Assembly (NCBI GenBank): GCA_026770705.1
Contig: JANJGN010000034.1
Coordinates: forward strand, 11,036,001 to 11,100,000
Source of the DNA: Isurus oxyrinchus
Lineage: Eukaryota
Direction: 5' to 3'
DNA length: 64,000 bases
The stretch's first letter is position 1; each line of letters starts with the position of its first letter. The notes beneath the pieces are model-generated. The model did not search any database and had not been told where the DNA came from. It saw nothing but the letters and a program-made list of their open reading frames with translations. The position numbers and the translations under genes are program-made. Below are positions 21,463-35,834 of this stretch, in pieces.

Positions 21463-21529
21463 ATGCAATCAACATTAGTTCCCAATATTTGGATTTGTCT
21501 CTTTCTTTCCTTCGTGTCATGGACAGAAG
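21463..21529 (+). CDS. Siglec-like Ig-superfamily inhibitory receptor, exon 1 (signal peptide)
   Basis: ATG at 21463 reads MQSTLVPNIWICLFLSFVSWTE then G|GTAAAT donor; 67 nt, phase 1, joins exon 2 in frame. Confidence 0.85.
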
Positions 21530-22183
21530 GTAAATTTCATATGTTTTACTAATTTCTGCAACGAATTATTCCTGTTCTGTAGAAAATGTTTAGGAAATGC
21601 ACAATGCAATTGACTTTTGGTAGTCCATTTTAAAGATAGCGATCTGAGTGTTTAATTCCTGATTTATCTATGGCTAAATATAGTTATAAATATACTTGCC
21701 TATTCGAATAATACTCTAACGTTGGACACTTCAAATTATATTGAATGAGTATTGTAAAGCATTTGTAGAGCATTAATTGATATTTATTGAGTGATTCAAG
21801 TGAGATTCAATGAATATTTTGATGTCTATTTTAATTAATACTGATTTTAATGTATGTTTATCGAGGATGTTTATTGGACATTCTCTTGCTTTTTAATGAC
21901 AACGTATTCGGCTTTTGGACTCGGGTTAAATATGTAAATATGTTGCTTATGCACTGATCAAATAGATATTCTAATGAACATTTGAAAATGCGTAATTGGC
22001 ATTTAATTAGTATTTTACTTGAGCTGAAAATTCATTAACTGACCCCAAAATAGTGATTGTGTAGTGGGAGTACTTGAAAATTGACAAAAAAAATTAATCG
22101 CCACTAAAGATATTGAAATGGATTTTCGATGGAAATTTCGAAGGGGTGATATTCCTGTTTTTATTTTTATTTTTCTGTCTCAG

Positions 22184-22558
22184 TTATTTGTAGTCGTCAG
22201 TTCTGGATGGTGATGCCAGAACATGCATCTGCCAACTTGAGTTCAGTTGTAGAAATTTCGTGCAGGATGAACAATATGGAATATATGAGCAACTTGCAGG
22301 GGAGATGGCTGAAGTGGGACCCTGTTAACTCCAGTGGCATTACTATCTGTGACAGCAGGAAGCCAGGGTGGGAGGGTTATAACTGCCGTGAAAGAATTCA
22401 GTTCAAATGCAACCTCGAGAAAGCGCAATGCTCCCTCCTGACAAAGGACATCAGGAAGAGTGATGAGGGGACATATCAATTCATCGCCGAAGTCTCCTCC
22501 AAGGGGACTGTTTCTACATTTCGCACTGAGAGTTATAAAGTCCGACTTTCTGTTTCCG
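22184..22558 (+). CDS. Siglec-like receptor, exon 2 (V-set Ig domain)
   Basis: Polypyrimidine tract plus CAG acceptor (22181-22183); reads VICSRQFWMVMPEHAS...VEISC...GRW...AQCSLLTKDIRKSDEGTYQFIAE...VRLSVS; Cys in B and E strands and none in F, as in Siglec V domains; phase 1/1; donor G|GTGTTT is weak. Confidence 0.9.
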
Positions 22559-23217
22559 GTGTTTGTTTTGTTGCTTTATTTATTGCTATTTCTTTCTCTA
22601 GTCTGAATGTGTAAAGTGGGCAAATGTTGCCATTTTCTCGGCTGAACGTTCAGGGTAGTTTAAACGCAGGTTGGGGAAGTACTGATAATAAACGCGATAG
22701 TTCCTACACTAAAGACAGCGCCATATGTTAATTACCCCAGTAAAACTGACCACCCGTGATGCTGTTTATCCTCCTTTTGAGGAATATTCCGAATCACATG
22801 TAGCTGTCTAGTCCCCTTATCAATATTGGGGACTCCGCACGTTTGGTGTTTGTGATTCTAGGGGATTCCAGTGATGCTTTGAGTTTAGTCAGTATTAAGT
22901 GTATTATTACAATGAGGACAGCGAATCAGCATCCACATCAGCTCTCTTCATTTAAGTCAGATCTCACCGCTGGTTGGACTTCAGAATTGGCCTGAAAGAG
23001 CAAAGAGTGCTAACCTAGAGGCACCAACAAGCAGCCAAAATGGGAAGAGAGGAAAATGCCCCAGGAAAATACATATCTCTTGTCTTTTCAGGCTCCGTGA
23101 CAGTTAAATCCGGAGGTTCCCATATCAGACAGGGCCACTGAACCCAATATAATGATTTCTCTAGGAGCTGAATGATGATGACTCGTCATTCATGTTTTGC
23201 ATTTTTGTCTGCTTTAG

Positions 23218-23475
23218 ATGGATTGGGAAAGCCAACAGTCAATTCCTCTCTCGTGGCGGTAGAAGGCAACTCCTCATTATTAAACTGCATCGTCAGGGAA
23301 ACATTGGCCAGCAGTTTAAGATGGGAGAAAAATAGTGAAGAGATCAGCAGCTGTTCCACTGATGAATTAAAGCAGACGTTTCACAACATGACTTCTGAAG
23401 GTGACGGTGAATATTGGTGTGTGGCTGAATATAACCTGGGCACCGTAAATAATTCCACACAGATTTCTATGCAGC
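23218..23475 (+). CDS. Siglec-like receptor, exon 3 (C2/I-type Ig domain)
   Basis: TTTAG acceptor; DGLGKPTV...EGNSSLLNC...LRW...DGEYWCVAE...ISMQ; C|GTAAGT donor; 258 nt, phase 1/1. Confidence 0.9.
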
Positions 23476-23914
23476 GTAAGTGTGCATAATCTTCTCAATT
23501 TGACACTTGCCTTTCATCTCAAGAACTATGAGTTAAATTCCAACATTCCCTTGTACCCTTGCTGCAAGTCTCCAAATTGAATGAGGCTGGGACAGAGGCA
23601 TTGCCAGGACCCTTTTGTGCAGGCAGGGCTGAGCATAGCCTCGATGGTTTCAATAATAGAAATAAACCTGGCTTTGGCTCAGGTCGGCAGGGGTGGAATA
23701 TGGCTCACATGGTATTAATTCACAGGCTGGTATCTTTGACTTTTGCCCACAAGAAAATTTCCCACAACTATTATTCTGCATCCAATTCTTCACAAGCAAT
23801 GCTGGTAGTCTGGCGGAATTAATTTTCCATTGCATAGAATTAGCATTTTGCATTTCGATAAACATATATTCTCGAAAATTCTCGGATTAGTGATGGTAGC
23901 CCTGCTATTGGTAT

Positions 23915-33669: not shown

Positions 33670-35024
33670 GTAGGTGTGTGCTGCTTAAATAGTTAAACAC
33701 AGATTTAAAGTTTGCGAGGCAGAGCTATTGCTTAATAAGGTTTGCCCTGAAACTCCTGGCCCTGACAATGAGCTAAGAGTTGTGAAGGAGTTGCCAATGG
33801 AATCCAAGCTGTTATGTAATGAAAATAACAGAATGACAGAGGCTCATGTCCCCTGGTCAATCCCGCACTCGGCTATTGATCTGAATGAGCTCTCACGTGC
33901 ATGTGGGAATGAAATAATTTGTTAGCCCCAATTCTCCAGAGCCGAATGAAGAAACAGTAAGCGAATTATATTTGACAAAAGTAATTTGGAATTGAAAACT
34001 GAACACAATCTAGGCTTCTAAACTGAACGCGAAGAATTAAGTTCAATCTCCACCAATCTATATTTAATCTGTGCAATATCAGTCACTACTGTTTGAGTGC
34101 AATATTGGAATACATTTCCTTCTGGTGTGCTGGGTGCTCGAGTCTAGTCTTGCCTTCAAGAGGTAATTGAATTAGTTTCTTAGAGGTGAATCACAGTGAA
34201 CTTCAGTGTTGTTAAAGGTAAGACCTGCTCCCGGTGGTCTCCGGGACTGGTTTCGACAACCTGATGGGATCTACGAGGACTTCAAAGGATAATGTTCCTC
34301 TTATTCCCAGAACTCTTCCTGCCTCCCCCTGGAGCTTGCGGGAGGGAGTGTGAGGAAGGGATTGAGAGACTCTAATTGGAGGAACCATTTGCCAGGGAAG
34401 TTCTAACCCTGACTGGCCCCCTGATCGCTGCTTTCTTTGTTCGTCATTTTCATTTATTTTAACAGGAAGTCCGGCCTACTAGTTTGGAAATTTGCTTTAG
34501 GATATTACATTAATCTCTCCAGTCAGCCCTGCATACAACGTGTTAAATCAATATCGAGAACTCCTGCCTATAAACAATGTGTCAACCGACGAAACACTTG
34601 TTTGCTACTTAATATATTGTTAAGACTCTGTATGAAGCATCTAATCACCTCTTCAACGTCGTGTTAACAAACAGTAACTCTCCCTTACATGTGTTAGGTG
34701 TGCACACGTTTTATTTAAAAATTAATTCATTTATCTTTTAAATAATGTTAACTTAATGTGTGGAATAACTGTGCCCGATATTTGGCCAGGTGTTACATCT
34801 CTACACAAGCGATGAAGCTCTCTGCTGACTGATAAATTCTCCCAGTACTGGTGACTCAAGCTCATTGATCAGCTTTCTGAGATAGAGGGAAACCTTCACA
34901 TAGAAAGATGGATGTTTACTGACAATAAGTAAACAGGAACCAAACTGGGTCTATGTGGATCAGGAAACGATAGACAGCCAATTTCCTGATGCTACAGCAC
35001 GCAGCTATAATTGAACAAAGCACC

Positions 35025-35115
35025 GAAAAGAATGCAGACTCGAAACGTTAACTCTGCCTTTCTCTCCGCAGATGCTGTTAGACCTGCTGAGTTTTTCCAG
35101 GATTTTCTGTTATTG
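35025..35115 (+). mobile_element. Penelope terminal-repeat fragment
   Basis: GACTCGAAACGTTAACTC...CAGATGCTGTTAGACCTGCTGAGTTTTTCCAG. Confidence 0.7.
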
Positions 35116-35192
35116 TTGCTATAACTGAACACACTGGTACTAGTAGGTTCTAAACAGCTGTGAGATTAATCTTACTTTTATTTCATAATCAG

Positions 35193-35280
35193 GAAGATGA
35201 AAAGTGACATTGCTTGTGTCCCCACAGCCAACGACGACTGGACGACTTATGCTGTGGTGCAACACCCCTGGACCACCCAG
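35193..35280 (+). CDS. Siglec-like receptor, exon 6 (cytoplasmic, ITSM TTYAVV)
   Basis: ATCAG acceptor; phase 2 in: (R)KMKSDIACVPTANDDWTTYAVVQHPWTTQ; CAG|GTTAGT donor, phase 0. Confidence 0.83.
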
Positions 35281-35669
35281 GTTAGTGACGGGAAGGAAAC
35301 TGACCAATGCCGAAAGGAGATATCTACCAGATTATTAATCTGTTTCTAACCACACTAAACGTGCAATTCAACCATTTAACGAGTGCTGTGAAACCTTGTT
35401 TGACTGAGCTTTCTGATGATGGACAGGCTACCCCAATCCACTGACTGGAGGTGATGCCTTGGACATTGACCTGCTGAATATGGCATGGACATTTCTTGTC
35501 TAACAGGTTTATGTTGAAATTGAAATATAGAATGTAAAGCACTTTTTGTAATTGAGTATGAACAATAGATTAGTATCAGAGATAGAATGAAAGAGATTAT
35601 TCTATTACAGATATGACAATCATATCCATTCCACTAGTTCCATGTCTAACACACAGCTTTCTGTTACAG

Positions 35670-35834
35670 AGCCATGTCTCGGACAGTAATGCTGATGTTC
35701 GAGAGACTACATCCAAATCAGCTGCAAGTGAGGAGCTTCTATATGCATCATTCAGTTTCTCGAACTTTCACAAATCTGAAAATCATTTGCAGATTCAGGA
35801 GTCCAGTGAATATGCTGTTATTAAATGTAAATAA
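35670..35834 (+). CDS. Siglec-like receptor, exon 7 (cytoplasmic ITIM-like motifs, stop)
   Basis: TTACAG acceptor; SHVSDS...EELLYASFSF...SSEYAVIKCK*, resembling the CD33-related Siglec tail (ELHYASL.F / TEYSEIK). The seven exons sum to 1326 nt = 441 aa plus stop. Confidence 0.88.
   Translation, partial: SHVSDSNADVRETTSKSAASEELLYASFSFSNFHKSENHLQIQESSEYAVIKCK

Follow-up and report, generated by a model that had tools for sequence, protein, structure and literature searches.

Gene structure at the locus

The window analyzed here is a 64,000-nucleotide stretch of the Isurus oxyrinchus genome (GenBank assembly GCA_026770705.1, contig JANJGN010000034.1, hereafter C34, positions 11,036,001 to 11,100,000 of the forward strand). 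The gene under study, on its plus strand at window positions 21463 to 35834, encodes a putative inhibitory receptor of Siglec descent with an isoleucine in place of the arginine through which Siglecs bind sialic acid. As a first-pass annotation made from the sequence alone had proposed, seven exons join in phase (junction phases 1, 1, 1, 1, 2, and 0) into an open reading frame (ORF) of 441 codons followed by TAA; all exons have AG/GT ends, and 12 of the 12 splice sites are canonical. Exon 1 (21463..21529) encodes the signal peptide; exon 2 (22184..22558), a Siglec-type V domain that includes Val44, C49, Cys78, Cys90, Cys98, C105, Ile123, and Arg136; exon 3 (23218..23475), an immunoglobulin (Ig) domain closest to MAG Ig4; and exon 4 (25173..25460), a membrane-proximal, MAG Ig5-like domain with an extra cysteine pair (C244 and C253) beside C255. 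Exon 5 (33585..33669) encodes an uncharged transmembrane (TM) helix with a hydropathy peak at residues 334-352, and the cytoplasmic tail is divided between exon 6 (35193..35280), with TTYAVV (Y377), and exon 7 (35670..35834), with LLYASF (Y412) and SEYAVI (Y435) before the stop. A chance ORF is excluded, because the same exon order recurs in a paralog 100 kb away (C34:11.168-11.181 Mb, with stop-free exons) and in NCBI-annotated proteins of Heterodontus and Scyliorhinus.

Relatives of this gene start at an ATG that corresponds to its codon 9 (21487-21489), which here reads ATT. The leader at the matching start reads MWIC in both the paralog (by eye from DNA) and Heterodontus P0021, and in contigs of a close relative position 21489 is G, so that the codon reads ATG. 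With the conserved ATG changed, translation would need the in-frame ATG at 21463, eight codons upstream, at which exon 1 opens. Downstream of exon 4, a duplicate of that exon (28075..28370, plus strand; 80% nucleotide identity) is dead, having, by eye, an acceptor changed from AG to AA, an in-frame TAG, and a GC donor, and is predicted to be skipped in splicing. The ectodomain carries 11 N-glycosylation sequons, nine of them in the two C-type domains, where the first-pass annotation had counted at least ten.

The V domain and its arginine site

The cysteine layout of the V domain is that of Siglecs, as had been anticipated: VEISC (C49) and AQCSLL (C105) place cysteines in strands B and E, and in DEGTYQFIAE a phenylalanine (F122) occupies the usual F-strand cysteine position. 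An AlphaFold model (mean pLDDT, the predicted local distance difference test score, 81.5) adopts a V-set fold with C49 and C105 on strands B and E, between which a disulfide would be expected. A HMMER alignment pairs YQFIAE with YNFRFE of sialoadhesin, and Ile123 (codon ATC, 22483-22485) therefore stands at the site of the essential Siglec arginine, as the first-pass annotation had read it.

Siglec descent is likewise upheld, both by profile matches in the PDB and by trees. The V exon finds sialoadhesin as its best solved match (E 0.0012), and the top PDB matches of the V profile are sialoadhesin (E 7.8e-17), CD33, Siglec-5, Siglec-10, MAG, and Siglec-7, with JAML ranking third among the matches via two domains. 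An atlas classification of the domain gives CD22-like as its first match (0.96); the Pfam Ig_CD22 score is 23.4 bits, under the cut-off of 27, which the ortholog P0021 passes with 29.5. In the trees, from which the CRIg/VSIG4, PILR, pIgR, and CAR/JAML families were left out, the domain is nested among Arg-bearing Siglec V domains. Fold comparison of the V model gave close scores for CRIg (Z 16.6, root-mean-square deviation 1.8, 116 aligned), sialoadhesin (Z 15.3, root-mean-square deviation 2.5, 111 aligned), and PILR (Z 15.1), and so the fold cannot decide between Siglecs and other V-set receptors; sequence, trees, and the C-type domains, however, point to the Siglec/MAG group. Because both the essential arginine and the inter-domain disulfide of Siglecs are missing, we class the protein, on sequence grounds, as Siglec-derived rather than as a Siglec, although its overall layout is that of an inhibitory Siglec.

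The V exon contains six cysteines in total (residues 25, 49, 78, 90, 98, and 105). The four in addition to the B-E pair, which the first-pass annotation had emphasized, are present, but Cys25, near the end of the signal peptide, is common in the family, and Cys78, Cys90, and Cys98 replace a conserved Tyr, Tyr/Phe, and Gly, respectively. Cys78 recurs in the neighbouring pseudogene and Cys90 in one Mustelus protein; these three cysteines are private or nearly so, and may reflect erosion rather than design.

Distribution and age of the Arg-less branch

Among 113 aligned V domains, 108 are of Siglec type, although these rows are related and do not represent 108 independent events. The branch that contains the present gene (n = 21) has Ile in 18 members, Ser in two, Leu in one, and Arg in none at the arginine site, whereas the other Siglec-type V domains (n = 87) have Arg in 70, Lys in eight, and other residues in nine. 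The relatives, which carry automatic database names such as 'MAG-like' and 'SIGLEC13-like', belong to Heterodontus, Scyliorhinus, Mustelus, Cetorhinus, Carcharodon, Rhincodon, Chiloscyllium, Pristiophorus, Heptranchias, and the ray Narcine. The Arg-less branch itself covers galeomorph and squalomorph sharks, of several orders, and a ray. A species-specific loss of the arginine was considered and rejected on these grounds, and the earlier suggestion of a lineage-specific family does not hold in any narrow sense.

In trees of 47 rows, a subset of the 113 picked by named source, the 18 Arg-less rows included fall together on one side of a branch (support 92/79, not among the groups marked as well supported), inside an elasmobranch clade (99/97) most of whose other members keep the arginine; P0002, P0056, and P0060 entered a FastTree run only, and P0002, which has a mis-modelled V start, is outside the cysteine count given below. 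The isoleucine is kept in 12 of 14 nonredundant members, while nearby loop and G-strand positions are variable, which suggests constraint rather than free drift. A single arginine loss, from Arg to Ile, before the split of sharks and rays, which is ∼270-300 million years old, is the simplest, if unproven, reading. No description of an Arg-less elasmobranch Siglec branch was found in the literature searched, which lacked most subscription journals.

Three Arg-less proteins (P0002, P0005, and P0009) resemble adaptor-coupling receptors in having an arginine where the predicted TM segment starts, although P0005 and P0009 also have tyrosine tails.

Loss of Siglec domain 2 and the MAG-like ectodomain

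The first-pass annotation had described a leader-V-C2-C2-TM-tail protein; the order and number of domains stand, but neither C-type domain corresponds to Siglec domain 2 or 3. Exon 3 finds MAG (PDB 5lf5) as its best match, with the best stretch at chain residues 311-384 (domain E 5.1e-06), and the family profile and Heptranchias P0038 align their last Ig domain to MAG chain residues 377-478. Since exon 3 matches Ig4 best and the last domain aligns to Ig5, the ectodomain is, by sequence comparison, V plus Ig4-like plus Ig5-like. MAG Ig5, too, has an extra disulfide (PMC5150538).

Heptranchias P0011 and P0038 have a V domain, Siglec domain 2, and then two further domains, whereas the V domain is directly joined to the third domain in five members, namely the present gene, its two neighbours, Scyliorhinus P0001, and Heterodontus P0021. 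These five rows form a clade with support of 100/98, or 92/95 without the trait columns. A domain-2 remnant inside the gene was sought and rejected, as tblastn with four queries at E 10 gave no match within it. We infer that domain 2 was lost before bullhead, cat, and mackerel sharks split.

The same loss accounts for the inter-domain cysteine, whose site is Val44 in this protein. In MAG, the equivalent V cysteine bonds to Ig2 (C37-C165) (PMC5150538), and here the whole partner domain is absent. Consistent with this, the cysteine is found in none of the five domain-2-less members and in 13 of 13 checked Arg-less members with domain 2, although the Arg-bearing sister P0045 has domain 2 without the V cysteine, so that the link is not absolute. 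The missing cysteine, correctly noted at first pass, thus does not mark an independent alteration at the binding site, but accompanies the absence of domain 2.

An orphan, degenerate Siglec domain-2 exon lies upstream, outside the transcript model and on the opposite strand (15609..15836, minus; tblastn with P0040, E 1e-09). It stands head-to-head with the gene and was duplicated along with it, a frameshifted twin being present near C34:11,194,040 (plus strand), upstream of the paralog; it is a probable relic of a lost neighbour gene.

Tail and proposed mosaic origin

The inhibitory-type receptor proposed at first pass is supported by a TM helix without charged residues and by the tyrosine motifs of the cytoplasmic tail. 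When the immunoreceptor tyrosine-based inhibitory motif (ITIM) is taken as [I/V/L/S]xYxx[L/V] or a near form, only the first and last of the three tail motifs fit. All three tyrosines are kept in P0001, P0011, P0038, and P0040.

The tail appears to have a different history from the rest of the protein. In the TM/tail tree, a trio (100/98) unites the present gene and its paralog with the Arg-bearing gene at 10.79 Mb of the same contig, and this trio sits in a set of seven (100/100) that excludes the V-domain ortholog P0021, whereas the V and Ig5-like trees separate the present gene from the Arg-bearing genes. Silent divergence from the Arg-bearing gene is 1.40 in V versus 0.35 in the tail, and the last exon lies, together with flanking sequence, in a 556-bp tract that matches the Arg-bearing gene at C34:10.81 Mb with 88.7% identity. 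From these patterns, we infer that the tail was swapped and that gene conversion has continued since. Tails would thus be homogenized by conversion while heads stay distinct, which would be expected if heads define different ligands and tails provide a common output.

Selection and condition of this copy

The introns differ by 17.8% from those of the paralog while the coding frame stays open. Of 2000 neutral simulation runs with substitutions only, 19 (∼1%) retained an open frame when 0.10 changes per site were introduced; at 0.05, 155 of 2000 (∼8%) did. Given the intron divergence and the rarity of open frames in the former runs, selection has probably maintained the reading frame. The pairwise ratio of replacement to silent rates (dN/dS) is ∼0.5 for V as well as for the C-type domains and the tail; that of the dead exon duplicate, compared with exon 4, is 0.92. 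Two contig sets presumed to derive from RNA, aligned to exons 1-4, matched just a repeat there and speak neither for nor against expression. In the comparison of V exons with the close relative (31 of 36 differences on its contig listed), eight of the 13 listed V differences are replacements and five are silent, and this ratio (0.43, p 0.17) does not differ significantly from the neutral expectation.

Positive selection on the V domain was considered and rejected: compared with the paralog, 29% of bases differ in V and 18% in introns, yet the stretch of intron 1 adjoining V reaches 31%. Four-fold sites differ at 7 of 25, and the whole promoter-leader-V head is ∼70% identical to the paralog, versus ∼80-84% for the rest. 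We therefore read the divergence of V as an apparently older genealogy of this head rather than as dN/dS above 1.

Genomic context

The V exon has nine matches in its own genome. Besides the gene itself and the paralog, they are a neighbouring pseudogene with stops (C34:11.10-11.11 Mb), two Arg-bearing genes (C34:10.79-10.81 Mb), and four near-identical Ile-bearing genes (C34:1.13, 1.21, 1.91, and 2.01 Mb) of a V, domain 2, Ig5-like type, which have a cysteine at the strand-A aromatic position and are either recent duplicates or assembly copies. Related genes on this contig have exons with 83-97% identity to a Carcharodon protein, which is consistent with a mackerel shark. Window positions 14.5-36.5 kb and the paralog region form an inverted segmental duplicate with ∼80% identity.

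A genome scan with Pfam Ig_CD22 scored 150 matches out of 810 candidates, and the arginine is kept in all 20 of those read, so that sialic acid sensing appears to be covered by other genes. The Siglec expansion is very large, with matches on contigs C52, C71, C121, C150, C189, C323, and others, and 12 of the 20 matches read contain a Trp/Thr/Asn-rich CC' insert such as TWNTWNTR. At C34:10,775,000-10,811,000, an inverted partial copy of the Arg-bearing gene's own Ig4-/Ig5-like exons lies on the minus strand just upstream of it, and the two are a possible paired receptor. A candidate MAG ortholog at C34:7,540,000-7,554,000 (minus strand) was rejected, being a six-domain, Arg-bearing family member with exons ∼1-6 kb apart; no MAG-like protein was recognized by motif among the proteins retrieved for comparison.

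Elsewhere in the window, a V-set exon at 42267-42665 (plus strand), which lacks the canonical cysteine pair, scores above the Pfam V-set cut-off, and is weakly CD48-like (E 0.003), belongs to a probable CD2/SLAM-type gene; a simple scan to 47.8 kb found no Ig exon after it. Two mutually similar single-exon ORFs of rhodopsin-family seven-transmembrane type (Pfam 7tm_1) lie at 47902-48831 and 56489-57439 (both minus strand), and reverse-transcriptase-like ORFs of a repeat element occupy 11701-13947 (plus strand), with shorter copies in the introns of the gene.

Functional interpretation

With somewhat better than even confidence, we regard the product as an inhibitory immune receptor of ITIM type, with a V domain that binds some non-sialic ligand, probably a protein. 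Ligand binding would cluster the receptor, the tail tyrosines would then be phosphorylated, and SHP-type phosphatases (SHP-1/2) would be recruited to the tail, dampening activation, as in ITIM Siglecs. By analogy, sialic acid held in the canonical manner is not the likely ligand, because the R118A mutant of MAG lost ganglioside binding (PMC5150538), and arginine mutants of Siglec-1, -5, -9, and -10 lost glycolipid binding (PMC10122656). A protein ligand has a precedent in Siglec-5, which binds a protein of bacterial origin and recruits SHP-2 (PMC3190825), and SHP1/2 recruitment persists in Siglec-XII despite its mutated arginine (PMC11343606). The long retention of the isoleucine would be better matched by a conserved ligand, such as a self or cell-surface protein, than by a fast-changing microbial decoy.

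Several observations weigh against this assignment. With two trait columns removed and a mixture model applied, the Arg-less branch persists with support of just 73/0, and the better-supported group (98/95) then comprises, besides the 18 Arg-less rows, one Heptranchias V domain that has the arginine. In Siglec-6, sialylated glycolipids are bound without the canonical arginine (PMC10122656), and Arg136, which lies at the beginning of strand G in the AlphaFold model (strand start at residue 135) and may be near the pocket, could hold an anionic sugar. The middle tail motif, LLYASF, ends in a noncanonical Phe. The departures of dN/dS below 1 are only marginally significant (z of -2.2, -2.4, and -1.5 for V, the C-type domains, and the tail, respectively), the conserved ATG is lost, the number of extra cysteines is odd, and conserved sites are changed at 18 of 96 in this copy, versus 8 of 91 in the paralog (p 0.058), 5 of 93 in Heterodontus (p 0.007), and 10 of 95 in Scyliorhinus (p 0.15).

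Several of these observations also feed the leading alternative, which we nonetheless consider unlikely, namely that the family is functional while this copy is redundant and, under relaxed selection, drifting to a pseudogene, with a V domain that may misfold or stay in the endoplasmic reticulum through unpaired cysteines. The ATG-to-ATT change, the three cysteines gained at conserved Tyr, Tyr/Phe, and Gly positions, the eroded conserved sites, the dead exon duplicate, and the neighbouring pseudogene all suit such decay, as do end branches longer than those of the paralog (0.22 versus 0.066 for Ig5-like and 0.26 versus 0.086 for the tail) and the replacement of an otherwise invariant Asp116 by Glu in the close relative. 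It is opposed, however, by 441 open codons and a full set of canonical splice sites, by the low survival of open frames in the neutral simulations, by the replacement-to-silent ratio against the close relative, and by the in-frame ATG that could replace the lost start. The receptor that the first-pass annotation called "intact" is so in its frame and splice sites, but not in its start codon and conserved sites. The paralog and the Heterodontus ortholog are less eroded and thus better suited for bench work.

Less probable still is that a basic residue at a displaced position, be it Arg136 on strand G or some other, stands in for the canonical arginine and keeps the receptor binding sialylated or sulfated glycans. 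A by-eye register on the model strand puts Arg136 near R105/W106 of sialoadhesin, an aromatic residue is retained at position 29, position 136 is basic in 9 of 14 family members, and Siglec-6 offers a precedent (PMC10122656); yet this position is Arg in just 5 of the 14, the second pocket of Siglec-6 lies at the interface of V and domain 2 (PMC10122656), which is absent here, and the loss of ganglioside binding in MAG R118A (PMC5150538) also opposes it. The least credible alternative, which we doubt strongly, is a receptor with no outside ligand that acts as a tonic cis brake, or as a dimer partner of Arg-bearing sister receptors via its Ig4/Ig5-like domains: the two retained domains do match the pair through which MAG dimerizes (PMC5150538), and Siglec-XII has been proposed to signal without a ligand (PMC11343606), but the equivalent of MAG I473 is Ser in the family (by-eye alignment), the nine sequons on these two domains would be unfavorable given that glycans hinder the MAG dimer (PMC5150538), and heads that diverge between paralogs above homogenized tails fit ligand specificity.

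Relation to known Siglecs and implications

MAG/Siglec-4 (PDB 5lf5) is the best solved match of the family profile (E 3.5e-31) and of P0038 (E 4.7e-52), as well as of exon 3 and of the folded Heterodontus ortholog, and the shark gene resembles it in its Ig4- and Ig5-like domains and the extra Ig5 cysteine pair. Unlike MAG, the shark protein has three Ig domains instead of five, lacks Ig2, Ig3, the R118 equivalent, and the C37-C165 link, and has a three-tyrosine tail, in a multigene shark family. The cysteine layout of V is shared with sialoadhesin/Siglec-1 (PDB 1qfo and 1od7), from which the shark protein differs in having Ile for R97, a short ectodomain, and tail tyrosine motifs. Its Arg-bearing elasmobranch sisters (the genes at C34:10.79-10.81 Mb, Cetorhinus P0026/P0028, Mustelus P0032, and Chiloscyllium P0045) belong to the same elasmobranch clade and have related Ig4-/Ig5-like domains and a common TM/tail lineage, but keep the arginine, the strand-A Trp, and domain 2, with ∼36% V identity to the present gene.

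Human Siglec-XII and great-ape Siglec-5/14 are likewise Siglec-derived with a mutated essential arginine (PMC6288428, PMC11343606), and Siglec-XII keeps its ITIMs (PMC11343606). These primate losses are recent and do not extend beyond humans or great apes, and null alleles of human SIGLEC12 are frequent (PMC6288428, PMC11343606), whereas the elasmobranch loss is common to sharks and a ray and was followed by gene duplication and domain loss. Whether ligands of the primate Arg-less Siglecs exist is open (PMC11343606). A teleost study describes fish genomes as lacking inhibitory CD33-related Siglecs, with no mention of sharks (PMC7226832); ITIM-bearing Siglec-like expansions do exist in cartilaginous fish.

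More broadly, and only tentatively, sharks and rays may possess an ancient and distinct Siglec-derived inhibitory class that uses a hydrophobic, Ile-centred face to read a self ligand other than sialic acid, its heads grafted onto the gene-converted tail of sialic acid-reading Siglecs, so that two parallel self-recognition channels would feed one output. The genome offers a natural control pair for this, in the form of an Arg-bearing and an Arg-less head with closely related tails, ∼270 kb apart. Primate Arg-less Siglecs are usually taken as recent accidents; if the present interpretation is true, an isoleucine kept across sharks and a ray, followed by duplication, domain loss, and a tail swap, would show a Siglec scaffold stably re-used without sialic acid.

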